Origin: an uncultured Chloroflexia bacterium
GTDB lineage: Bacteria > Chloroflexota > Limnocylindria > Limnocylindrales > CSP1-4
Assembly (NCBI GenBank): GCA_963829155.1
Contig: CAWHIA010000006.1
Coordinates: 179,161 to 243,160 of the forward strand
Length of the DNA stretch: 64,000 nucleotides
Direction: 5' to 3'
Shown here: positions 4,347 through 20,149 of the stretch, piece by piece
How positions within the stretch are numbered: position 1 is the first letter of the stretch
Layout of the letters: every line of letters begins with the position of its first letter
The notes under the pieces: model-generated
Told to the model about the DNA's origin: nothing
Databases searched by the model: none
What the model saw: only the letters and a program-made list of their open reading frames with translations
Made by a program: the position numbers and the translations under genes

Positions 4347-4556
4347 CCCGGACTCCTCGTGGTTCGGGGTGGCCCCCGATGTGCTTCCGAGGATCCGTGC
4401 TGGCGTGTTGCGCCGGAGTCATGCGCATCGCCGTTCGGGTTGCGGATGGCTTGCGCGGGTCCGGGTGCCGAAACGGCATTTCCCATGCGATGGGCTCGTT
4501 GTAGGATCGACCGCGGGCGGTGACGAGCCCAGGCGCTGGCGAAGGGAGGCCGCGCC

Positions 4557-5983
4557 ACGGATCCCGAATTCCTGTCTCGGGTCCAGTTCGCCCTGACGGC
4601 GAGCTTCCACTTCCTGTACCCACCGCTCTCGATGGGGCTGGGGCTGATGATGATCGTCATCGGCGTCGCCTACGCGCGGACCAAGGACCCGAAGTGGCGC
4701 CAGCTGTCGTTCTTCTGGGTCAAGGTCTACGGCCTGATCTTCGCGATGGGCGTGGCCACCGGCATCGTCCAGGAGTTCGAGTTCGGCATGAACTGGGCCG
4801 ACTACTCCCGGTTCGTCGGCAATGTGTTCGGCAGCCTGCTCGCCGCAGAGGGCGTGTTCGCGTTCGCCCTCGAGGGCGGCTTCCTGGGCCTGCTGCTGTT
4901 CGGCGGCAACCGGCTCGGCCCGCGGCTGTGGCTGTTCGCGACGACCGTGGTCGTGTTCGGCGCCCACTTCAGCGCCCTCTGGATCATCATGGCCAACTCC
5001 TGGATGCAGACGCCGCAGGGCTACACGATCGCCACCGATCCGGCGCCGACGCGCGCGGTCATGACCGACTTCTGGCAGGTCGTGTTCACGCCGTCGTTCG
5101 TGCCGCGGCTGCTCCACGTGTTCTTCGCGTCGTGGACGGTCGGGGCCGCGCTGATGGTCAGCGTCGAGCGCCTTCTACGTCCTCAGGAAGCAGCACCTCG
5201 AGCTGGCCAAGTTCCCAACCTGAAGGTCGGCCCTGGCCGCGTTCATCCTGTTCGCGACGGCGAACTTCGGGCTCGCGGGACCGAGCATGGCGATCGAGGT
5301 CACGAACGAGCAGCCGCTCAAGCTGGCGTCGATGGAGGGCCTGTGGGAGAGCACGTCGTGCGCGCCGCTGTACCTCGTGGGCTGGGTGGACGAGCCGACT
5401 CAGACGACGACCGGGATCTCGATCCCGTGCCTGCTCAGCGTGCTCGCCTACTTCAACCCGCAGGCCACGGTCCAGGGCATCACCACGTTCTCGCCCCCGG
5501 ATCCGACCCCGCCCATCAACCTCGTGTTTCAGGTCTACCACTTCATGTTCGGCCTGGGGTCGCTGTTCGTGCCGATCGGCTTGCTCGCCGGCCTGCTGTA
5601 CTGGTGGAAGCAGCGGCTGTTCACGGACCCGCTGGATGCTGTGGATCCTCGTCATCACCGTGTTCTTCGTCGAGGCCGCGATCATCGCCGGCTGGTGGAC
5701 CGCGGAGGTCGGGCGCCAGCCGTGGGTCGTCTACAACGTGCTCGCGACGGCCGACGGCGTCTCCCCCACCCTGAGCGGCCTCGACGTCGCCGTCTCGCTC
5801 GGGATGTTCATCGCGCTGTACGCGATCCTGCTGGCGCTGTTCCTGTACCTCCTCAACCGGGCGATCCAGCACGGCCCGGAGCCGCTGGAAGACGTGGAGA
5901 CGGTCGACCGGGCGACCCTGCCCAACACCTTCCGCGAGGTCTTCACGCGCCGGGATCGCGCCGCCTCGAGTGGAGAGGACTGA
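4557..5983 (+). CDS. cydA: Cytochrome bd ubiquinol oxidase subunit I (several frameshifts; apparent ACG start)
   Basis: DPEFLSRVQFALTASFHFLYPPLSMG (heme His), QEFEFGMNW, ANSWMQTPQG, Q-loop QPLKLASMEGLW, AEVGRQPW, spread over three frames. Confidence 0.92.
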
Positions 5984-6999
5984 TGCTGGCCGAGATCTGG
6001 TTCGCGCTGTTCGTCGTCATCGTCGCCGGCTACCTGATCCTCGACGGCTTCGACATGGGCGTCGGGATGCTGATGATCCCGATGGGCAAGAACGACGACG
6101 AGCGGCGGACGATGCTCAACAGCATCGGCCCGATCTGGGACGGCAACGAGGTCTGGCTGGTGATCGCGGGCGGCGTGCTGTTCGGCGTGTTCCCGCTCGT
6201 CTACGCCTCGCTGTTCTCCGGCTTCTACCTGGCGTTCATGCTCGTGCTGTTCGTGATGATCCTGCGCACGGTCGCGATGGAGTTCCGGAGCAAGGAGCCG
6301 TCGCCGCGCTGGCGGTCGTTCTGGGACATGGTGTTCGCGCTCGCCTCGACCGGGCTGGCGTTCCTCCTGGGCGTGGCCTTCGGCGACGTCCTGTCGGGGG
6401 TGCCGCTGGACGCGGACGGCAACATGTCCGTCACGCTGATCGGGCTGCTCAAGCCGGTCCCGCTGCTGGTCGGCGCGGCGACCGTCGCGATGTTCGCGAT
6501 GCACGGCAGCCTGTACCTGGTCCAGAAGACCGAGGGCGACCTCCAGGCCCGGATCCGGCGGGCGGTACCGCGGCTGATCGCGGCCTTCTTCGTGCTCAAC
6601 ACGGTCGTCGTGGTCGGGATGCTGCTCTCCCGGGACCAGATCACGACCAACTACGTCGACGACATCTGGCCCGTCATCTTCCCGGCGGCAGCCCTGGTGG
6701 CCATCCTGATGGCCTACCGGTTCGTGCGCCAGGGACGCGAGTTCGCGGCGTTCCTCGCGTCGGCCGCGACGATCGCCCTGCTCGTCATCTCGGGCGCGGC
6801 GGGGATGTTCCCGAACCTCATCGTCTCGACCACCGATCCGGCCTACAACCTGACGATCTACAACGCCGCGTCCGCGGACAACACCCTCGTCGTGTGCCTG
6901 ATCTTCGCCGTGATCGGGATCCCGTTCATCCTGGCGTACACGGTCGGCGTCTACTACTTCTTCCGAGGCAAGACAACGGTCGACTCGCACGGGTACTGA
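5983..6999 (+). CDS. cydB: Cytochrome bd ubiquinol oxidase subunit II
   Basis: ATG overlaps the cydA TGA; YLILDGFDMGVG, IGPIWDGNEVWL, YNLTIYNAAS. Confidence 0.95.
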   Translation: MLAEIWFALFVVIVAGYLILDGFDMGVGMLMIPMGKNDDERRTMLNSIGPIWDGNEVWLVIAGGVLFGVFPLVYASLFSGFYLAFMLVLFVMILRTVAMEFRSKEPSPRWRSFWDMVFALASTGLAFLLGVAFGDVLSGVPLDADGNMSVTLIGLLKPVPLLVGAATVAMFAMHGSLYLVQKTEGDLQARIRRAVPRLIAAFFVLNTVVVVGMLLSRDQITTNYVDDIWPVIFPAAALVAILMAYRFVRQGREFAAFLASAATIALLVISGAAGMFPNLIVSTTDPAYNLTIYNAASADNTLVVCLIFAVIGIPFILAYTVGVYYFFRGKTTVDSHGY

Positions 7000-8742
7000 G
7001 GCCGTCGCGGGGGCCGCGCGGCCGGGCGCTGGTCTGATCCGCCGGTCGACCGCGACGAGGCCCGAGACCCGGCTGCTCGCGCTGGACCCCCACGCCGGAC
7101 GCCTGCTGACGGCGGCCGTCGGGGTGGCGATCGGCGGCGCGGTCGTTCGCGATCGCCGTGGCCATCGTCCTGAGCACGATCATCGCCGGGGTCGTGCAGG
7201 GCACGCTGCCGGCGGGCGGCCCGGCGCCCCTGCTGGTCGCGCTGGCCGCGCTCGTCGCCGTGCGCGCGACGCTGCTCGGCCTGTCTCCGACGCGCTCGCC
7301 GGCCGCGCGGCGGTCCATCTGGCGTCCGGACGTCCGCCGACGTCTGACCGGCCACCTGCTCGCGCTCGGCCCGGCGTTCGTCACCGGCGAACGGAGCGGC
7401 GAGGTCGCCTCGACGCTCGTCGACGGTCTCGAGGCCACCGAGGCCTGGGTGCGATCGTTCCGGCCGGCGGCCCTGCTCGCCAACGTCGTCCCGGTCGTGA
7501 TCCTCGTGGTCGTGCTCGTGATCGATCCTCCGACCGCCGTGGTGCTGCTGGCGACCGGACCCGTGCTCGTCCTGCTGCTGGGGCTGATCGGCCGGCGGGT
7601 CGGCCCGGCAACCGCCGCCCGGGCCGCCGACCTGCGCTGGATGCAGGGCTACTTCGCGGACATGCTGCAGGGGATCGCGACGCTGCGGGCGTTCGGGCGC
7701 AGCCGGGAGCAGGCGGACCGGATCCGCGAGATCGGCCTCCGCTACGGCGACTCGACGATGACGGTGCTGCGGACCGCGTTCCAGGCCAGCCTCGTGCTCG
7801 AATTCGGCGCCGCGGTGGCGATGGCGCTGGTGGCCGTGGAGCTGAGCCTGCGGCTGATGGGCGGCAGCATCGGGTTCGCGTCGACGCTCGCCGTGCTGAT
7901 CATCGCGCCGGAGTTCTTCGTGCCGTTGCGGCGGTTCGCCGCGGCCTACCACGAAGGTGCCGCAGGTCGCGAGGCCGCGGCGCGGATCCTCGAGATCCTC
8001 GACGCACCGCCGCCGCGCGCCGGCATCGAGACAGCCCTCGGCGAGCGGTCGGCGGCGTGCCCGTCGAGCCCTCGCGCTCGCTCGGGGACATCGTCCTGCA
8101 CGGCGTCTCCGTCACCTACCCGGGTCGCGCGGAACCCGCGCTCCGCGACGTCGACCTCGTCCTGCCCGCCGGCCGGCGGACGGCGATCGTCGGCGAGTCG
8201 GGGGCCGGCAAGTCGACCCTCGCTCGGCTGTTGCTGCGGTTCGTCGATCCGGACGCGGGCCGGATCACCGTCGGCGGCGAGGCCCTCGCCGACATCGACG
8301 TCCACGCCTGGCGCGGCCGGATCGCGTACGTCCCGCAGTCGCCCCACCTGTTCCACGGGACGGTCGCCGAGAACATCCGCCTGGCGCGTCCGGACGCGAC
8401 CGCTCGACGACGTCGCGGCCGCGGCACGCGACGCCGGCGCGACGGCGTTCATCGACGACCTGCCCGACGGCCTCGAGACGCCCATCGGCGAGGACGGCGT
8501 CAGGCTGAGCGGCGGCCAGCGGCAGCGGATCGCGGTCGCGCGGGCGTTCCTCCGCGACGCCGACCTCGTGGTCCTCGACGAGCCGACCGCCCACCTCGAC
8601 CCCGACGCCGAGGCGTCCGTCGCCGAGGCCATCGACCGGCTCGGCCGCGGCCGGACGGTCGTCGTGATCTCGCACCGGTCGGCGCTCGTCGAAGGGCGCC
8701 GACGTCGTGATCGAGCTCGACCACGGGCGGGTCGTCTCGTGA
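7000..8742 (+). CDS. cydD: Thiol/heme ABC exporter subunit CydD (frameshifted; start uncertain)
   Basis: IIAPEFFVPLRRF, Walker A GESGAGKST, LSGGQRQR, LDEPTAHLD; follows cydB. Confidence 0.85.
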
Positions 8743-8758
8743 TCCGCGGGCGCCGGCG

Positions 8759-10411
8759 ATGATCCTGCGGCGCGTCCTCGGGCTCGCGGCGTCCAGGCCC
8801 GGCTGGCTCCTGCTCGGCGCCACGGTGGCGGCGGTCTCCGTGATCGCGAACGTCGCGCTGGTCGGGACGTCCGCCTACCTGATCAGCCGCGCCCAGACCG
8901 TCACCAACGTCGCCGACCTCGCGCTCGCGATCACCGCGGTCCGTGTGCTGGCCATCGTGCGCTCGGGCTCGCGGTACCTCGAGCGGATCGTGATCCACGC
9001 CGGCACCTTCCGCGTCCTCGCGGACCTGCGTGCGTCGTTCTTCGCCGTCGATCGAGCCGCTGGCCCCGGCCGGGCTCCGGTCGGCTCGCGGCGGCGACCT
9101 GCTCGCCCGCATCACGGCCGACGTCGGGACGCTGGAGGAGGCGTTCGCCGGGGTCGCCGTCCCGCCGATCGCGGCCGCGGGCGCCGTCGCCTTCGGCTGC
9201 GTGCTGCTGGGCTGGATCGATCCGATCGCCGGCTGGATCCTGCTGGCGTTCGCGGTCGCCGCGGGTCTCGTCCTGCCGGGGCTCGTCAGGGTCGCCTCGC
9301 GCGAGCCCGCGCGGGAGCGGATCGCCGCGCGCGCGCTCACGACGGCCCTCGCGCTCGACGCCGTCCGTGGGGTGGGCGACCTCGCCGCGCTGGATCGCGA
9401 CCAGTCGCACCGATCGCGGCTGCTCGACGCGGCCGGCGCGATGGACGGCGCGACGGCACGGCTCACGTCCGTCCGCGCGGTCGCGACCGGCGCGTCGTCG
9501 CTGTTGACCGGGCTGTGCGCGGTCGTCGTGCTGTGGGTCGGGATCGACGCCGTCCGCGGTGGGTCGGTCCCGGACGTGCTGCTCGCCACGCTGCCGCTGG
9601 CGGCGATCGCGACCTTCGAGGCGATCGGTCCGCTGGCCGCCGCCGTCCAGCGGCTCGACGCGACCGAGGCCGCGGGCGCGCGGCTGTTCGAGGTCATCGA
9701 CGCGCGACCCGAGGTCGTGGACCCGCCCGCGCCCGCGTCACCGCCCGAAGGGTTCGGACTCGAGGTCGACGGCCTCCGGTTCCGGTACCCGGGCGGGGCG
9801 CGCGACGTCATCGACGGCCTGTCGATATCGATCCCGGCAGGCGGGCGGCTCGCCGTCGTCGGACCCAGCGGGGCCGGCAAGTCCACCCTGGTCCAGCTGC
9901 TCCTCCGCTTCGACGACTACGCGACCGGCGAGATCCGGGTCGGCGGCCGCGAGCTGCGCGGGCTGGCGCAGGACGCGGTCCGGGCGAGGATCGCCGTCGT
10001 CGCCCAGCGGGTCGACCTGTTCGACGCGACGATCCGCGACAACCTCGCGCTGGCCGACGCCGACCTGACGGACGACCGCGCCCGGTGGGCGCTCGAGACG
10101 GCCCAGCTCGCGGACGTCGTCGACGCCCTGCCGGACGGCGACGGGACGCGGATCGGCGACGACGGCCTACGTCTCAGCGGCGGCGAGCGGCGGCGCCTCG
10201 CGATCGCCCGCGCCATCGTCCGCGACGCCCCGATCCTCGTCCTGGACGAGCCGACCGCGGACCTCGACGCGGCGACCGAGGCCCGACTGTGGGCCGCGCT
10301 GGAGCCCGTGATGGCGGGGCGCACGACCCTCGTGCTGACCCACCGTCCCCCGCCGGGCTGGGACCCGGCCGCCGTCGTGACGATGCGCGCGGACGGATCG
10401 AGCCGGCCTAG
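8759..10411 (+). CDS. cydC: Thiol/heme ABC exporter subunit CydC (frameshifted; end approximate)
   Basis: AVRVLAIVRSGSRYLERIVIHAGTFRVLADLR, GDLLARITADV, GPSGAGKST, LSGGERRR. Confidence 0.85.
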   Translation: MILRRVLGLAASRPGWLLLGATVAAVSVIANVALVGTSAYLISRAQTVTNVADLALAITAVRVLAIVRSGSRYLERIVIHAGTFRVLADLRASFFAVDRAAGPGRAPVGSRRRPARPHHGRRRDAGGGVRRGRRPADRGRGRRRLRLRAAGLDRSDRRLDPAGVRGRRGSRPAGARQGRLARARAGADRRARAHDGPRARRRPWGGRPRRAGSRPVAPIAAARRGRRDGRRDGTAHVRPRGRDRRVVAVDRAVRGRRAVGRDRRRPRWVGPGRAARHAAAGGDRDLRGDRSAGRRRPAARRDRGRGRAAVRGHRRATRGRGPARARVTARRVRTRGRRPPVPVPGRGARRHRRPVDIDPGRRAARRRRTQRGRQVHPGPAAPPLRRLRDRRDPGRRPRAARAGAGRGPGEDRRRRPAGRPVRRDDPRQPRAGRRRPDGRPRPVGARDGPARGRRRRPAGRRRDADRRRRPTSQRRRAAAPRDRPRHRPRRPDPRPGRADRGPRRGDRGPTVGRAGARDGGAHDPRADPPSPAGLGPGRRRDDARGRIEPA

Positions 10412-10414
10412 CGG

Positions 10415-11249
10415 TCAGCGCGGCGGCCCCGCCTTGGCGATCGCGAGGATGTCGTCGGGCGAGCCGCGGAGCGGCGTGACGGACTCGAGCCACCAGGTCG
10501 CGCCGACGGCCTCGTAGTCGGCGGGCGTGAACCCGCCCAGGCCCGAGACCCCGAACACCGCCACGTCGAACGGGCGGCCGTCGAGGCCGGCCTCCCGGCG
10601 GGTCGCCCGCGCCAGCTCGACGCGCTCCGCCAGGCCGGACGGCGGCATCCCGAGCACCCCCGGGTCGTCGGCCGGTGGTCACCGCGATCCAGCCGTCCCA
10701 CCGCGCCGCCCGCCGGATGCCGCCCGGACGGAACGCGCCCATCCAGATCGGCGGCCGCGGCTGCTGGGCCGGCCGCGGGCCGATCCCCACGCCGTCGACC
10801 GGGAAGTCCGGCCCCGCGTGCGTGACCGACTCGCCGCGCAGGAAGGCGTCGACGATCTCGACGGCCTCGTCCATCCGCGCGACCCGGACGGCCGAGGTCC
10901 AGTCCTCGCCGAACGCCTCGTAGTCCGGCCGGTCGCCGCCGGCGCCGACGCCCAGCACCAGCCGCCCGCCGCTCAGGCGGTCGAGCGTCGCGGCGGCCTG
11001 GGCCACGAGCTGCGGGCGACGCCGCGGGAGGACGATGACCGACGCCAGCAGCGCGAGGCGCTCGGTCGCGGCGGCGACGCCGGCCAGCGCCACGAACGGG
11101 TCCGCGGCCACGCTGTCCATGGCGAGCCCGAGGGTGTCCCAGGTGCTGAAGCCGTCCCAGCCGGCAGCCTCGGCGGCCTCGGCCAGGCGGACGAGCGTCA
11201 GGGGATCGGAGAGGTCACCGAACGGGGCGACGTCGAGGGCGTATCGCAT
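10415..11249 (-). CDS. LLM-class flavin-dependent oxidoreductase (frameshift ~10675)
   Basis: AEAAGWDGFSTWD, LDRLSGGRLVLGVGAG, QQPRPPIWMG, RRAARWDGW; C-terminus GATWWLE in a second frame. Confidence 0.85.
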
Positions 11250-11303
11250 GGGTCGACCTTACCGGGTGCCAGACCGGCGTCGGCGCCCGCGAGACACGAA
11301 AAC

Positions 11304-11386
11304 GCCCGAAGGAACCGTCGATCACTAGCTGTTCCGATCACTGCAAGCAACAACCGGATCACTAGATGTTCGAGGCCCCTTCGGGC
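11304..11386 (-). ncRNA. Candidate small RNA (element A) with 3x AGUGAUC loop motif
   Basis: 5' GCCCGAAGGGGCC pairs with 3' GGTTCCTTCGGGC followed by GTTTTCGTGT. Upstream TTGCCC-17nt-TACGTT. Ends nearly identical to 14375-14554. Confidence 0.6.
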
Positions 11387-11392
11387 ACCACC

Positions 11393-11421
11393 AACGTACC
11401 CGCCCGGCGCGAGCCGGGCAA
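11393..11421 (-). promoter_or_regulatory. Sigma70-type promoter for element A
   Basis: -35 TTGCCC (11421-11416), 17-nt spacer, -10 TACGTT (11398-11393), 6 nt before the stem. Confidence 0.55.
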
Positions 11422-11465
11422 GCCACAACTCCATATCAACCGCCATCCAACGCATTCCCTCGACA

Positions 11466-12272
11466 TCACGACGGGGCGGCCAGGTCGCGCCGCGGGAAGC
11501 GCCACAGGCCGTAGCCCACGGCGACCACGAACACCGCGAGCAGCACCAGCAGGTCCGTCGGGTCGCCCTGCCCGCCGAGGATCGCGAACGGACGCAGGTA
11601 GTGGAACGGCGAGTACGGCTGCACCACCTGGGCGTCCGGCCACAGCTGGCCGAGGATCTCGAGCACGTACCCGAGCAGCACGACCGCGAGGCCGATGGCG
11701 ATCGCGGGACCGAGGCGGTCGAACGACGCCGAGGCGGCCAGCGAGATGGCGGCGAGCGCCGCGAGGAGCAGCACGGTGTTGAGGAACAGCAGGCCCTCGT
11801 GGCCGGCATCGAGCTGGCCGACCAGGCCGTATGCCGCGGACCCGACGACGGTGCCCAGCACGGCCGCGGCCGACGTGACGACCGCGACGCCCAGGATCGC
11901 CACCAGCAGCGTGACGAACACCGACCGCCTCGAGAGCGGGCGGGCCAGCAGGACCTCGAGCGTGCCGCTCTGCCGTTCGCCCGCGATCGCGGCCGCCGCG
12001 AACCCGACCGGGTAGACCACCTGGAGCGCGATGGCGATCGGGTGCCCGACGCCGAGCGCGATCGCGGCGTCGAGGCCGAAGACGCTCGAGCCGAGCAGCC
12101 GCAGGAAGGCCTGCGGGATGATGCCCGACTGGATCAGCGACTCCATCTGCCGGCCGAAGGTCGCGTAGATGACCGGCATCAGCGACGACCAGATCCCGAG
12201 GGCGACGGCGATCACGGCGACTCGCGTGCGCTGCGCGCGCCAGGTCTGGCGGAGGAGCGGGCCGCTGATCAC
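11466..12272 (-). CDS. ABC-2 type transporter permease
   Basis: Multiple TM segments; AIAGERQSGTLEVLLARPLSR; SPFHY; FPRRDL C-terminus. Confidence 0.9.
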   Translation of the reverse strand: MISGPLLRQTWRAQRTRVAVIAVALGIWSSLMPVIYATFGRQMESLIQSGIIPQAFLRLLGSSVFGLDAAIALGVGHPIAIALQVVYPVGFAAAAIAGERQSGTLEVLLARPLSRRSVFVTLLVAILGVAVVTSAAAVLGTVVGSAAYGLVGQLDAGHEGLLFLNTVLLLAALAAISLAASASFDRLGPAIAIGLAVVLLGYVLEILGQLWPDAQVVQPYSPFHYLRPFAILGGQGDPTDLLVLLAVFVVAVGYGLWRFPRRDLAAPS

Positions 12273-13243
12273 GCGTTCGCCCCGTGGTCCGCGCCCGTCG
12301 CACCGCCCTCGTCGTCGTGGACCGCGTACAGCTCGAGGAACGCGTCCTCGAGGCGGGCCGGCTCGATCAGCAGGTCGGTCACAGCCCGCGTGGCGATCGC
12401 CGCGAGCAGGGGCTTCGGGTCACCCTCCAGGTCGCAGGTCAGTCGCGTGCCGTCGACCGCGATCGCCGAGATGCCGCGGACCGAGGACAGGTCCGGCGGG
12501 TCGCCCGCGAACTGCAGCTCGACGCGGCGCTTGCGCCGGGCGAGGAGCGTCGCGACGTCCTCGTTCGCGACCAGGCGGCCCGCGCGCACGACGGCGACCC
12601 GGTCGCAGACGCGCTCGACCTCGGACAGCACGTGCGACGAGAACAGCACCGTCCGCCCCGCCCGACGAACGTCCTCGAGGATGCCGTAGAAGGCGCGCTG
12701 CATCAGCGGGTCGAGGCCCTCGGACGGCTCGTCGAGGATCGCGAGCTCGGGGTCGTGCTGCAGCGCCTGGACGATCCCGAGCTTCTGGCGCATGCCGCGG
12801 GAGTAGTCGCGGATCGGTCGGCGCAGGGTCCGGGCGTCGAGCTCCAGGCGGTCGCACAGGGCCGCGCGCCGGACGGACGGCCGGCCGGCGAGATCGGCGA
12901 GGTCGTCGAGGTGGCGCTCGCCGGTGAGCCCGTCGTGGAACGCGATCCCGCCCGGCAGGTACCCCGTCCGGGCGCGTATGGCCACGGACTCAGTGACGAT
13001 GTCCCGACCGAGCACGCGCGCCGTCCCGCTGGTCGGGTGCAGGAACCCCAGCAGCAGCCGGATGAACGTGCTCTTGCCCGCGCCGTTCGGCCCGAGGAAC
13101 CCGAACACCTCGCCGGCGCGGACGTCGAGCGTGACGTCGTTGAGCGCCGGGATCACCGCGCCGCGGCGCCCCAGTCCCCCGCCGCCGTAGTGCTTCGTCA
13201 GCGCGGCGGTCGAGATCGCGGGCTCGGTCGTTGGGGTCGTCAT
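12269..13243 (-). CDS. ABC transporter ATP-binding protein
   Basis: GPNGAGKST, YSRGMRQK, ILDEPSEGLDP, SSHVLSEVE; start MTTPTTEP after a TAGCCT -10. Confidence 0.92.
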   Translation of the reverse strand: MTTPTTEPAISTAALTKHYGGGGLGRRGAVIPALNDVTLDVRAGEVFGFLGPNGAGKSTFIRLLLGFLHPTSGTARVLGRDIVTESVAIRARTGYLPGGIAFHDGLTGERHLDDLADLAGRPSVRRAALCDRLELDARTLRRPIRDYSRGMRQKLGIVQALQHDPELAILDEPSEGLDPLMQRAFYGILEDVRRAGRTVLFSSHVLSEVERVCDRVAVVRAGRLVANEDVATLLARRKRRVELQFAGDPPDLSSVRGISAIAVDGTRLTCDLEGDPKPLLAAIATRAVTDLLIEPARLEDAFLELYAVHDDEGGATGADHGANA

Positions 13244-13330
13244 CGCCGCAAGGCTACGTCCCGGGCGGCCACCGCCGCGCGACGCGGCCGGCCGATCAAC
13301 GAGGTGGCGCGAGCCGGTACGATCGACCCG

Positions 13331-13996
13331 ATGCTCTACCGCGCGGACCCCTGGCTCCACGTCATCGCCGGCTGCATGTCGTCGGGCAAGACCGACGAGC
13401 TGCTGCGCCTCCTCCGCCGGGCCGAGATCGCCCGCCGGCGGATCCTGCTCGTCCGCCCCGACGTCGACGACCGGACGCCCGGCGAGTACGCGGAGAGCCG
13501 GAGCAAGGCGCGCTTTCCGTCGGTGCTCGTGCCGCGCAGCAAGCCGGTCGAGATCCTGTCCCTCGCGCGCGAGCGCGACGTCGATCTCGTCGGCATCGAG
13601 GAGGCGCAGTTCTTCGACCCGAGCCTGGTGCAGACGGTCGAGACGCTGCGCCAGAGCGGCCGCCACGTGATCGCCAGCGGCCTCAACACCGACTTCGCCG
13701 GCCGACCGTTCGGCCCGATGCCCGAGCTGCTCGCCCTCGCCGACGACATCACGATGCTCAGCGCGATCTGCGTGGTCTGCGGCGAGACGGCGACCCGCAC
13801 CCAGCGGCTGGTGGGCGGCCGCCCGGCGGCCGTCGACGACCCCCTGATCGTGATCGGCGGGTTCGACGGACCGGCGATCGAGACCTACGAGGCCCGGTGC
13901 CTCCGGCACCACGAGGTCGCACCGGCCGGCTCGGCCCGCGGCGTGGTCGCGGACGACGTCCCGGAGCGCATCGGTTCCACGTCCGGCGACGGGTAG
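13331..13996 (+). CDS. tdk: Thymidine kinase
   Basis: GCMSSGKTDEL, IEEAQFF, GLNTDFAGRPF, zinc ligands CVVCG and YEARCLRH. Confidence 0.93.
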   Translation: MLYRADPWLHVIAGCMSSGKTDELLRLLRRAEIARRRILLVRPDVDDRTPGEYAESRSKARFPSVLVPRSKPVEILSLARERDVDLVGIEEAQFFDPSLVQTVETLRQSGRHVIASGLNTDFAGRPFGPMPELLALADDITMLSAICVVCGETATRTQRLVGGRPAAVDDPLIVIGGFDGPAIETYEARCLRHHEVAPAGSARGVVADDVPERIGSTSGDG

Positions 13997-14258
13997 CGCG
14001 ACGGCCGACGCCGTCGCTGATCGCCGAGCGAGCGCTGTGACGCCGCTCGCCTTCCGCCGCTCGCCTTCCGCTGAACGCCGGCGGTGCCAACGGACGGCTA
14101 CCGCTCTGCCAGCCAACCGTCCGACGTCCGGCGCGGCGCATCCGCCATCGCACCGCTCGCCCGGTGAGCCGCGGGGGCCCGGCGGACGGCGGGAGGCCCG
14201 GGAGGCGAGTCGCCGCGGCTGACTGGCCGTGCTCGCGCACGGTGGATCGTGGTCCCAC

Positions 14259-14332
14259 TCGTCCACAAGTTGTCCACGATGCCGGCGTTTCGTGGACAAC
14301 TCTCCGGCCGCCGGATCGAAGTTCGTGGACAA
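14259..14332. promoter_or_regulatory. Cluster of four DnaA-box-like 9-mers
   Basis: TCGTCCACA 14259 (+), TTGTCCACG 14270 (+), CGTGGACAA 14291 and 14324 (-); each one mismatch from TTGTCCACA. Confidence 0.4.
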
Positions 14333-14374
14333 GCCGGTTGTTGCCCCCTGGGGCGCCCCGATATCGTTCGGTCT

Positions 14375-14554
14375 GCCCGAAGGGGCCGGTGGCACCGACG
14401 CCGGGCTGATGAGTGATCATTGGACCGGGTCCCCGGACCGCCGCCACGACGGCCGCAAGGCCGACGAGGTGGCTGGAGCACGGGGCCGCTATGACAAGGC
14501 CGAGCTTGCTCGGCAGTGGCGTGGGCGTGACGGTGCGGTACGGTTCCTTCGGGC
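14375..14554 (+). ncRNA. Candidate 180-nt rod-like ncRNA (element B), 6S RNA-like
   Basis: Closing stem GCCCGAAGGGGCCG/CGGTTCCTTCGGGC, then GCACCG/CGGTGC and ACGCC/GGCGT; central open region with 3'-side hairpin GCCGAG-CTTG-CTCGGC; apical CGGCC-GCAA-GGCCG; -10 TATCGT 7 nt upstream. Confidence 0.55.
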
Positions 14555-14585
14555 GCTTTCGTGTGCGCCGAACACCGGATCCGCC

Positions 14586-15056
14586 ATGCCCAAGCTGTCC
14601 GCAGGTCTCCTCCTCTACCGACGCGCCGGCGATGGCATCGAGGTGCTCGTCGCCCACCCGGGCGGACCGATCTGGTCGCGACGCGACACGGGGGCATGGT
14701 CGCTTCCCAAGGGCGCACCGATCGACGGCGAGGCGCTGCTCGATTCGGCGCGCCGCGAGTTCCGCGAGGAGACCGGCCAGGAGCCCCCGCCCGGCGACCC
14801 GATCGATCTCGGAGAGGTCCGGATGCGCTCGGGCAAGGTCGTGCATGCCTGGGCGCTCGAGGGGGACATGGATCCGACCGAGCTCGTGAGCATGGTCGCG
14901 GAGATCGAGTGGCCCCCGCGGTCCGGCCATCGCCTCGAGGTGCCCGAGATCGACCGGGTGGCCTGGGTCGGTCCCACGGAGGCGCGCCGCCGGCTCAACC
15001 CCGCGCAGGCGGGCTTCGTCGACCGGCTGCTCCAGGTGCTCGCGCGCGAGGGCTGA
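14586..15056 (+). CDS. NUDIX hydrolase
   Basis: MPKLSAGLLLYR...AHPGGP...WSLPKG...ARREFREETG (Nudix box)...EWPPRSG...PEIDR. Confidence 0.9.
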   Translation: MPKLSAGLLLYRRAGDGIEVLVAHPGGPIWSRRDTGAWSLPKGAPIDGEALLDSARREFREETGQEPPPGDPIDLGEVRMRSGKVVHAWALEGDMDPTELVSMVAEIEWPPRSGHRLEVPEIDRVAWVGPTEARRRLNPAQAGFVDRLLQVLAREG

Positions 15057-17060: not shown

Positions 17061-17225
17061 CCGCGCCAGCGCCGTCACAGCGACCGTTCGGGAGCCCGTC
17101 CCGAAGCGCGCGCCACCCGATGCCGGAGGCTGAGCGCCGTCCGCGCTTCGAGAGCCCGATGCAATTCGCGGACTGGCCGCGTCGTCGGCGGCACGAAGTC
17201 GCCACCCAAGGCAGACTCTCCGCCG

Positions 17226-19998
17226 ATGACCACCCCCTCCCCGGCCCCGGCGCGACCCGGCAGGCCGCGCCCACGGCGTCGCGGGATCGGTCCCGCGGCC
17301 ACGATGGGACTGGTCCTGTTCGGCGTCCTCGTGGTCGGCGGCCTCGTCGGTGCCGGCGTCGCCCTCGCGACCTACGCATCGATCAGCCAGCGACCTGCCG
17401 CCACCGACGGAAGCTGGAGGAGATCCAGCTGCCCGAGCAGTCGGTCGATCTACGACCGGACCGGCCAGGTCGAGCTGGCCCGGTTCGGCGAGTTCAACCG
17501 CGACGTCGTGACCTTCGACCAGATCCCGCCGGTGCTGGTCGACGCCACCACGGCCGTCGAGGACGGCACGTTCTGGGACAACGCGGGCTTCGACACGATC
17601 GGCATCATCGCGGCCGGCATCGATTCCCTCCGCGGCGCGCCGCGCGGCGCCTCGACCATCACCCAGCAGCTGGTCCGCCAGCGGCTGCTCACCGAGAACG
17701 GCACGGCGCAGACGGACCTGTCGGCGACCCGCAAGCTGCGCGAGATCATCCAGTCGATCCGCGTCACCGAGGCCTACCACGGCGTCGAGGGCAAGCAGCG
17801 GATCATGGCCGCCTACCTCAACCAGAACTACTACGGCAACGAGTCGTACGGCGTCGCCGCAGCCGCGAAGGGCTACTTCGGCATCGACGAGGCGCACCTC
17901 AAGACGGACCTGACGCTCGCGCAGGCGGCGATCATCGCGGCGCTGCCCAAGTCCCCGTCGTCGTACGACCTCGTGCAGAACGCCATCATCGAATGCCTCG
18001 ACCCCGGGGCCGAGACGTCGGACGCCGAGACCTGCACCAAGTCCCAGCTGGTGGTCCCGCCCGACGCGCCGATCGTGCTGCGCCGCAACCTGGTGCTCGA
18101 CCTGATGGAGAAGGGCCGCACGCCGCTGACCGGGGGCGAGTTCACGGCGGCCGACTTCGACGCCGCACGCGCGGCGCCGGTGGTGCTCGTGGCGCAGGTC
18201 GTCCAACCAGTGGAAGGCGCCCCAGTTCGTGTGGCAGGTCCGCAAGGAGCTGACGACGAAGCTGTGCGGTCCCGACGCCGAGACCTGCGACCAGATCGAG
18301 GCCGGCGGCCTGTCGGTGACGACGACGCTGGACATGCGCCTCCAGGACGTCGCCGAGAAGTGGGTCAAGGCGGCGACGGTCGTCCCCAACTCGAAGAACC
18401 CGCGGGTCACGGCCAAGGCGCTCGGCCTCCCCTACCAGCGCTGGATGGACAGCCTGCGCAGCCACGACCTCCACAACGGGGCGCTCGTCGCGATGGACTA
18501 CGAGACGGGCGACGTCGTCGCGTACATCGGCTCGGCGGACCCGAACGGCCAGAAGGCGACGAAGAAGTTCCAGCCCCGGTTCGACGTCCTCGCCAACGGC
18601 TGGCGCCAGCCGGGTTCGGCGTTCAAGCCCGTCGTGTACTCCACGGGCATCGCGAACAAGAGCATCACGGCGGCGTCGATGTTCATGGATGTCGTCACCA
18701 ACTTCGGCGGCGGCTATACGCCGACCGACGCGGACAACCTCGAGCGCGGGCCCGTCCGGATGCGCGACGCCCTCAGCTTCTCGCTGAACATCCCGGCCGT
18801 GAAGGCCGGCACCGTGATCGGCAACGACGCGATCCAGGCGCAGGCAGAGGCGATGGGAATCCAGTTCCAGAATGCGCGCGTCGACGCAGGCGCCGCGTTC
18901 CCCCTCGGGGTCGAAGTCGTGCACCCGCTCGACCTGGTCCGCGCGTACGGCACCATCGGCGACCGGGGCCGGCTCGTGGAGCAGACCACGATCCGCACGG
19001 TCACCGACAACACCGGCACCGTCGTGATCGAAGAGAGCCAGCGCCCCAAGCCGGCCGACGCGCTCGACCCGGGCGCGGCCTACATCATGACCGACATCCT
19101 CGCGGGCAACACGAACCCGCGGAAGAACCCGTTCTGGGGCCAGTTCGCGATCAGCGACGGCGGCGTGCGCCGCCCGGCCACCCTCAAGACCGGCACCAGC
19201 AACGAGGCTCGCGACCTCAACGCCTACGGCTTCATCGCCGCCCCCGACGACCGCGGCCGCAAGGACGACGAGTACGCGCTGGTCGTCGGCGCGTGGAACG
19301 GCAACTCCGACAACTCGCTGGTCAGCGGCCGGGGGGGGCCGCTGTTCTCGATCGACGTCACCACGTACGTGTGGCAGGGCTTCATGGAGGAGGCCACCAA
19401 GGGCTGGAAGATCAACGCCTTCAAGGCGCCCAACAACCTCGAGCGCGCGTCGGTCGACCCATGGACGGGGCTCGCGTCGTCGAGCCGCAACGCCGTCGTC
19501 GAGCTGTTCCTGCCGGGCACCGCTCCCAAAGGCGTCCTCCCCCCGGAGGCGCGCTGCGGCGAGGCGGTCCTGACCAACGCCGGGTTCGAGGACGAGCACG
19601 CGTCGTGGATGGCCGCCAACCAGGGGTGGCTGGCTCGGGCCCGACGCGGCCCGGGCAGGATCGGCGGGCCGGAGAACACTGCGACCGCGTACTTCTACAA
19701 CCCGGTGTTCAACCCGTACGGCCGGTCGTGGGGACCGCTGCTGGATGACGCGGGCTGCAAGCCGGCCGAGAGCCCGTCCCCGTCCATCGACCCGTGCGCC
19801 TCGATCGTGGGCGTCATCGACCCGTCGGCCGAACCCGTGGTCTGCCCGTCGCCCTCCGAGTCGACCGCGCCGACCCAGGCGCCGACCGAGCCGCCCACGG
19901 AGGCGCCCACCGAGCCGCCGACGCCCGAGCCGACCCCGGAGCCGACGCCCGAGCCCACCCCAGCCGAGCCGTCCCCCGCCGAGCCCGCCGCGTCCTAG
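17226..19998 (+). CDS. Class A penicillin-binding protein (transglycosylase-transpeptidase), frameshift ~18200
   Basis: TM anchor; AVEDGTFW, GASTITQQL, RKLREI, YLNQNYYGN; QPGSAFKP, SLN, KTGT; Pro/Thr/Glu tail. Confidence 0.92.
19868..19990 (+). repeat. Degenerate 12-bp tandem repeat encoding a PTEP/PTPE tail
   Basis: APTQAPTEPPTEAPTEPPTPEPTPEPTPEPTPAEPSPAEP. Confidence 0.7.
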
Positions 19999-20149
19999 TC
20001 GGGCAGGCGGAACGCCCCGTGAGGCAGGAACCGGCGGTCTCAGCACCTTCTCAGGAATCCGGCCTATGATCCGCCCGGCCGCGAACGGTTCGAGGGACCG
20101 GACGCGAGAGCCTCGTCGACCTGTCACCGTCCATAACGCGGAGATGCAC

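Follow-up and report, generated by a model that had tools for sequence, protein, structure and literature searches.

The stretch at 11294..11421 of the window (the whole 64,000-nucleotide piece of DNA analysed here) raises the question of whether it encodes a structured RNA and, if so, how such an RNA would act. The first-pass annotation had read it as a short non-coding RNA carrying AGUGAUC three times in a single-stranded loop, related to a second element 3 kb away and acting either as a CsrB-like sponge or as a multi-seed RNA. We refer to the two elements as E1 and E2. Judged from sequence comparison, E1 is likely a conserved, transcribed, stand-alone small-RNA gene. Its mode of action appears to be different from the one first proposed.

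E1 is predicted to fold as a rod in which the repeated motifs are paired

The letters on which the earlier reading was built are all present: GATCACT at 11320, 11336 and 11357, AGTGATC at 14412, a 13-mer common to the starts of both elements (11386 on the minus strand, 14375 on the plus strand), 3′ ends of E1 and E2 that agree at 23 of 24 letters, and the extension of two of the copies to AACA-n-CTAGTGATC. The genes flanking E1 encode an ABC-2 permease and a luciferase-like monooxygenase; its layout is as follows.

11304..11386, minus strand: E1, rod RNA of 83 nt from one clamp strand to the other, symmetric subtype (A) (pattern match, covariation, covariance model, folding)
11374..11386, minus strand: end clamp, 5′ strand (13 nt), with the predicted transcript start (placed by the -10 spacing)
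11357..11371, minus strand: symmetric duplex, 5′ half, GA-A-CA-U-CUAG-UG-A-UC (alignment of homologues)
11335..11356, minus strand: apical hairpin, variable and covarying, holding (partly) the non-conserved middle AGUGAUC; CUUG cap at 11344-11347 (covariation)
11320..11334, minus strand: symmetric duplex, 3′ half, GA-A-CA-G-CUAG-UG-A-UC (alignment of homologues)
11304..11316, minus strand: end clamp, 3′ strand (alignment of homologues)
11294..11303, minus strand: U-rich tail following the clamp, where termination is predicted (profile of 162 elements; no call in the strict terminator scan)
11393..11398, minus strand: -10-like hexamer TACGTT (sequence and family spacing)
11416..11421, minus strand: weak -35-like hexamer TTGCCC with a 17-nt spacer to the -10, without an upstream DnaA-box-like site (sequence)

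The promoter claimed for E1 stood in part: the -10-like and weak -35-like hexamers are there at this spacing, but a strict promoter and terminator scan of 11000-15000 returned no site of either kind, so the promoter call rests on conservation. Across the family, TAnnnT precedes the stem by 5-8 nt in 151 of 161 elements, compared with 152 of 33000 random positions, and the profile over 162 elements has a U-rich tail behind the clamp.

The predicted fold of E1 is a single rod of -49.4 kcal/mol (z -6.57), matched by none of 200 shuffles. We aligned 27 of 28 homologues along the rod, leaving out one with an extra base in the core. Over 37 pairs in these 27 distinct sequences, 96.4% of 985 cells were paired and 14 pairs showed two-sided, compensatory change. 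The covariation score of 0.224 was reached by none of 500 shuffles; since that test is blind to kinship, we place the weight on slid controls, in which paired cells fell to 31-51%, and on specific swaps. A covariance model scored 99.8 bits on the E1 strand and 33.5 on the opposite one.

These results contradict the display of motifs in a single-stranded loop, because the interior is paired in the rod and 18 of the 21 AGUGAUC bases have an unpaired probability below 0.5. Nor are three copies of the motif a family trait: of 42 distinct elements from genomes, just the one in the window has them, and of the 93 metagenome elements among the matches listed, 4 do; over the whole window the AGTGATC heptamer is not enriched (5 found, 5.08 expected). 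CsrB and RsmZ carry many single-stranded GGA motifs in loops. E1, by contrast, lacks repeated GGA loops, its single GGA lying outside any hairpin loop, and its own repeated motif is double-stranded. CsrA (PF02599) was found in 0 of 5 subtype-bearing genomes, compared with 3 of 14 controls. Three AGUGAUC copies packed into 44 nt would suit a CsrB-like sponge whose end stem presents them as single-stranded sites, but covariation contradicts an open interior, the middle copy is not conserved and the E2 copy proves to be a tetraloop (see below); we regard this reading as barely credible, and the same points leave a multi-seed RNA built on the repeats unsupported.

A separate alternative is a trans-acting base-pairing sRNA that would open on an mRNA target, or would be paired by the loop of a paralogue carrying the complementary GAUCAC. 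An own promoter, a tail and sibling copies are typical of trans-acting base-pairing sRNAs; E1 has all three, and the loop of the C-type paralogues described below is complementary to GUGAUC over 6 nt. However, those loops vary at the positions that pair with GUGAUC, Hfq (PF17209) was found in 0 of 5 genomes compared with 5 of 14 controls, and forcing the E1 interior open gives -23.6 kcal/mol as against -49.4 folded, an opening cost of about 26 kcal/mol. The apex is freely variable yet paired and ends in generic caps, with a closing pair that covaries (U-A in 19 of 27 homologues, C-G in 7 of 27), and therefore offers no conserved exposed seed. With the conserved bases paired and the apex free, the structure argues against a base-pairing seed, and the reading is decidedly improbable. 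Two further candidates were rejected: a micropeptide (tandem stop codons inside E1 and no start codon) and a K-turn or box C/D element (the tandem G.A pairs, placed by hand, fall outside the covarying register).

E1 and E2 share an end clamp with a wider family

E2 lies between a thymidine kinase gene and a NUDIX gene.

14375..14554, plus strand: E2, 180-nt paralogue (subtype D) with the same clamp, an inner helix and three arms (folding, homologues)
14413..14416, plus strand: GNRA tetraloop (GUGA) of the first arm, source of the AGUGAUC in E2 (homologues)
14555..14564, plus strand: U-rich tail (sequence)
14362..14367, plus strand: -10-like hexamer TATCGT (sequence)
14270-14278 (one orientation), 14291-14299 and 14324-14332 (both in the opposite orientation): DnaA-box-like sites, three in all, preceding E2 (putatively read by DnaA)

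Its fold (z -4.35) was likewise matched by none of 200 shuffles, and 9 of 65 consensus pairs showed two-sided change among 10 homologues. In these the AGUGAUC of E2 amounts to an A-U pair closing a GNRA loop that reads GUGA in 4, GCAA in 4 and GCGA in 2. The interiors of E1 and E2 are no closer to each other than shuffles (p 0.27), and AGUGAUC could not be upheld as a motif common to both RNAs; the stem they share is real and is limited to the 12-13-bp end clamp and the U-rich tail. The two genes flanking E2 are unchanged in 8 of 8 relatives, whereas the E1 subtype occurs within the fetched stretch in 2 of 8. The 3-kb spacing thus reflects no fixed pairing, and on the same counts we rejected a functional E1-E2 link drawn from that distance. 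In one relative (L008:1337-1534, plus strand) the last 19 nt of the clamp of a D-type RNA, with its tail, are duplicated in tandem.

The proposal of a paralogous family of stand-alone structured RNAs was borne out: this genome holds five clamped elements, of 73, 83, 84, 143 and 180 nt, each with its own -10 and U-rich tail, and across the family paralogues range from 73 to 275 nt. E1 has all the features of this clamped Limnocylindria family, namely the 12-13-bp end clamp, the -10 at fixed spacing and the U-rich tail. The two-ended clamp pattern was found in 67 of 91 genomes of the bacterium's own family and in 0 of 209 from four other families of the class; the reversed pattern and a search of viruses both gave 0. 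An all-species scan found at least 120 loci, and among the 80 record titles listed 77 are Chloroflexota, several of them Limnocylindrales, and 3 name other groups.

We sorted the interiors into subtypes A (E1), B (other rods, some two-armed), C (one to three GAUCACAUCAA-type loops) and D (about 180 nt). Within any one subtype the interior is conserved, which speaks against termini of a REP-like repeat around random interiors, the alternative that the first-pass annotation had itself raised. The C-type paralogues at G000:C29:38108-38250 (plus strand) and G000:C4:53022-53094 (minus strand) carry a small loop module, and the 143-nt C-type copy carries three of them, so the repeated-loop member is that copy and not E1. 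Over 162 elements the C-type loops read GATCACATCAA (55), GATCGCATCAA (18), GATGACATCAA (8), GATCACCTCAA (5), GATTGCATCAA (4) and GATCGCCTCAA (2).

Some features of other members were noted in passing. B rods (L102, L014, L018 and others) carry a GAAAG/GACUAC internal loop in either strand orientation, which we take to be akin to a modular loop-E-type motif. A 262-nt clamped member at L039:1501-1762 (plus strand) consists of many GCAA-capped hairpins. The C-type loop module resembles the 3′ end of this genome's 16S rRNA, GAUCACCUCC, a likeness seen after the fact and with GAUCA broken in 32 of 92 copies; in the available part of PMC10582724, this 16S end is the sequence read by the GTPase Era.

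Comparison with Rfam, suggested earlier as a check, gave no family for E1 or E2. The window had no match among 4227 families at gathering scores, 11150-14700 had none at E up to 10, 6S and Ms1 included, and nine other loci gave three weak matches, none of them over an element. A literature search, which left most subscription papers outside its reach, found no paper on the clamped family. E1 and E2 thus belong to what sequence comparison predicts to be an uncatalogued RNA family with a distinct symmetric subtype.

Subtype A is built around a symmetric duplex

In subtype A, the unit GA-A-CA-n-CUAG-YG-A-UC occurs once per strand and contains the first and third AGUGAUC copies of E1. Since the unit is self-complementary except for a bulge and an A, its two copies form a nearly two-fold symmetric duplex, consisting of a 4-bp CUAG/CUAG centre with one bulged base per strand and, on each side, two pairs, a purine-purine mismatch and two further pairs. 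We aligned 94 of 99 distinct sequences across this core, skipping five whose alignment anchors were unmatched. Each pair of the centre is formed in 93-94 of the 94, the pair adjoining it changes from U-A to C-G in 8, and both mismatch positions pair in none. Of the 94, 93 carry U at the 5′ bulge, while the 3′ bulge is unconstrained. The lower mismatch is A.A in 91 and the upper one A.G in 73 and A.A in 19, so that the two-fold symmetry is not exact. In every one of the 94 the core begins 20-21 nt from the RNA 5′ end. Much of this invariance was imposed by the search patterns, and independent support comes from BLAST, clamp-pattern and covariance-model matches; the invariant core pairs themselves are uninformative on pairing, either way.

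A conserved, sequence-symmetric duplex with fixed bulges is what selection by a homodimer with two equal RNA-binding faces would be expected to produce. We therefore favour, at a probability of roughly 0.45, the reading that E1 is a ligand or decoy for a homodimeric protein that docks on the symmetric duplex. Alternatively, the self-similar core could stem from a duplication that was retained because it stabilises the fold.

A specific candidate would be a dimeric nuclease, RNase III or another: the rod might be cut centrally into two short pieces that act or decay, or be bound uncut and so lower the activity of the enzyme. RNase III was present in 5 of 5 genomes and is the only dimeric double-strand binder confirmed there. 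According to the available text of a review (PMC3867540), it binds 22 bp with two-fold symmetry, and its substrates and binding-only ligands are long hairpins that, like E1, contain a duplex of two-fold symmetry with bulged bases close to the middle; the E1 duplex spans at least 22 bp, as such a ligand requires. The same text describes a selected binding-only RNA whose resistance to cleavage comes partly from a GC/CG pair adjoining the cleavage site, and in E1, by a mapping made after the fact, the axis falls mid-CUAG with both flanking pairs C-G/G-C. However, as far as that text goes, the symmetry of RNase III substrates excludes base sequence and their sites are degenerate over 22 bp, whereas the E1 core is symmetric in its very sequence, with conservation across about 15 pairs. 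RNase III also occurs in all genomes tested while subtype A is patchy (at least 26 of 301), and by eye the rRNA leader and trailer of this genome have no such symmetric core. As RNase III sites are not sequence-symmetric in this description (PMC3867540), we keep the enzyme as a rival to the wider homodimer reading, and an unlikely one.

We rejected the core as mimic of a genomic DNA palindrome, CACTAGTG being present once in the genome. In the same genome (G000) GATC occurs 35089 times, palindromes containing CGATCG top the palindrome counts, and CTAG is rare (835). A rod subtype of one genus (L216-L218, L220 and L222-L224, at about 1501-1585) has CCGAACGA on both strands of an internal loop and is a second case of a self-similar core.

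Subtype A is patchy and its gene neighbours change

By strict pattern, subtype A was found in at least 26 of 301 genomes and at least 7 of 49 genera of the family, both lower bounds. The covariance model also found it in 5 of 46 genomes of one family in another order, in copies with a changed clamp, a kept core and 70-81% identity to E1; in two further families it gave 0 of 27 and 0 of 5 genomes. Of 401 genomes sampled across the phylum the core pattern hit 5, each belonging to this class; the control gave a single match. Eight viral matches to the core pattern, in low-GC DNA with an open frame and without clamp or model score, were put down to chance. A core-only metagenome scan yielded at least 121 loci; among the matches listed 100 were distinct and 93 full length, and among these 93 listed, 91 have a clamp with at least 10 of 12 pairs, some with compensatory changes, 86 have the -10 and 91 the U-rich tail. 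We attribute the remaining two, which lack the clamp, to chance in low-GC DNA.

The commonest upstream and the commonest downstream gene each occur at 8 of 85 subtype A loci, counts in which short flanks may split clusters, and the neighbours scanned are unrelated enzymes and transporters, which argues against a leader RNA. No gene co-occurring with subtype A was found in its neighbourhood. The luciferase-like gene downstream of E1 has its own -10 six bases before the ATG, and a role for E1 as its leader was rejected on this ground and on the varying neighbours of the subtype. That -10-like TAAGGT (window 11256-11261, minus strand), also seen in L206, suggests that the gene is read as a leaderless mRNA from its own promoter. 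Some subtype A copies stand in tandem with B rods near hflX, probably the ancestral locus. The gene upstream of this site resembles PF06475 glycolipid-binding proteins (13-46% of cluster members), and gave no lead to a partner encoded nearby. Elsewhere in the window (4500-10500 and 17200-20000), cytochrome bd/cydDC-like and penicillin-binding-protein-like genes, named by eye, are split over several frames, which suggests assembly indels.

Patchy occurrence in dozens of gene contexts, together with ends that are 9-bp inverted repeats, would also fit an element that acts as DNA, for instance a small mobile unit or paired operators, and makes no functional RNA. Against this, just one of the strands retains G.U pairs (87 of 94 sequences have G.U at clamp pair 11), the covariance model separates the two strands by the scores given above, the -10 and U tail keep a fixed spacing, each genome has one subtype A copy, and no transposase or integrase is common to the neighbour genes scanned. 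A purely DNA-level role is highly improbable. With its own promoter, its own tail and changing neighbours, E1 is instead indicated to be a trans-acting RNA.

DnaA-box-like sites mark most promoters of the family

Among the B, C and D copies, 158 of 161 have a GTGGAYAA-type box placed a few bases upstream of the -35; among the A copies 24 of 47 do, and E1 does not. We take this box to fit the DnaA consensus. It is absent from E1 and from 23 of the 47 A copies and hence does not define the family. The box is rare, with 49 occurrences in the 3.4 Mb genome, and three of its four clusters there are promoters of clamped RNAs. DnaA with the usual RDHSTV stretch was present in 5 of 5 genomes. Three exact boxes lie just behind dnaA in one relative, and the other four dnaA loci have one or none within 1.5 kb. 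From these sequence data DnaA control, of either sign, is likely for most clamped paralogues, E1 excepted.

DnaA as an activator that offsets a weak -35 was not borne out, since the -35 match does not differ between 182 box-bearing and 26 box-less promoters (p 0.83; within subtype A, p 0.32), although a -35 match of 5-6 out of 6 occurs in 11 of 23 box-less subtype A copies and in none of the 24 with a box. The promoter of a protein gene at G000:C7:191470-191510, which by eye we assume to be rsmG, also carries this DnaA-box-like site, equally far from the -35.

Comparison with known RNAs

The family might instead bind RNA polymerase like 6S (RF00013) or Ms1 RNA, with the 180-nt member as main form, the rods as short versions and DnaA tying their level to replication. 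6S and Ms1, as commonly described, have a long paired 5′/3′ stem, and E2 has a 6S-like length, paired ends and one fixed locus in 8 of 8 relatives; no 6S was found at E up to 10 in the genome, which is 72% complete. On the other side, E2 is a multi-arm junction without a central bubble, E1 has no bubble and is under half the 6S-like length, the clamped RNAs come as several paralogues of widely differing length, and neither 6S nor Ms1 matches E1 or E2 in Rfam. Polymerase binding is quite unlikely. ARAGORN found no tRNA or tmRNA in the window, and a tmRNA and an SRP-like motif are found elsewhere in the genome. E1 is not 6S, Ms1, SRP, tmRNA or tRNA.

CsrB/RsmZ-type sponges, as commonly described, resemble the clamped RNAs in being sibling non-coding RNAs under a common upstream regulator site that likely act on a dimeric protein. 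Bacterial Y RNAs (Yrn1, YrlA and YrlB, partners of Ro60/Rsr), as described in the accessible part of PMC4201824, are like E1 short, stand-alone RNAs whose 5′ and 3′ ends pair and include a conserved 5′ sequence, and whose second module can be exchanged. Their motif in that text, GNCGAAN0-1G, differs at one position from E1 5′ CCCGAAGG: the E1 5′ end, GCCCGAAGG, has C at the first position, the motif's first G being missing, and E1 falls outside the motif. E1 also has neither the bulged helix nor the tRNA-like domain described there (ARAGORN and Rfam, 0 each). The same source places Ro60/Rsr usually within 4 kb of the Y RNA gene, and Ro60 (PF05731) was found in 0 of 81 genomes compared with 2 of 14 controls. 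In layout, a common handle with an exchangeable module, the clamped RNAs come closest to Y RNAs, and in regulation to CsrB-type siblings, but they belong to neither group. They also resemble orphan multi-copy motifs such as Chloroflexi-1 (RF01698; PMC2864571, in its available part), likewise lineage-restricted, without assigned function and found by covariation, although E1 and E2 match neither Chloroflexi-1 nor any of the 4227 Rfam families.

A proposed mechanism and its meaning

In the mechanism we propose, transcription would begin at the first G of the clamp, and closure of the clamp just before the U-rich tail would end it, so that the whole RNA would serve as its own terminator hairpin with both ends shielded. 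The transcript is predicted to fold as the 83-nt rod with the nearly two-fold symmetric duplex at mid-rod, and a homodimeric protein may dock on this duplex and so be held or titrated by the RNA. Of the role proposed earlier, our best guess retains protein binding in the wider sense, through a double-stranded symmetric site. The probability that remains after the readings weighed here belongs to functions outside them.

A broader scheme, which we think rather unlikely as a whole, would make the clamped RNAs a modular RNA system peculiar to the Limnocylindria. In it, the shared clamp would recruit a common protein or end transcription, exchangeable interiors (symmetric duplex, loop-bearing rods, one to three GAUCACAUCAA loops, three-arm form) would each capture a different effector, and DnaA boxes would couple synthesis to replication initiation; the symmetric subtype would have escaped this control and spread between loci and orders as an accessory gene. 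New here are the symmetric core, the loss of the box in half of the subtype A copies and the reach into a second order.

An abundant uncultured lineage of soil and freshwater, in whose searched genomes Hfq, CsrA and Ro60 were not found, carries as many as five sibling RNAs that share a handle and differ in their interiors, most of them with DnaA-box-like promoters. If the clamped RNAs bind proteins, pull-down would lead to new RNA-binding proteins and possibly to an RNA that directly connects the initiation of replication with other functions of the cell. As bait, the symmetric subtype would be the easiest, at 83 nt, with a sharply conserved core and natural compensatory variants as controls.
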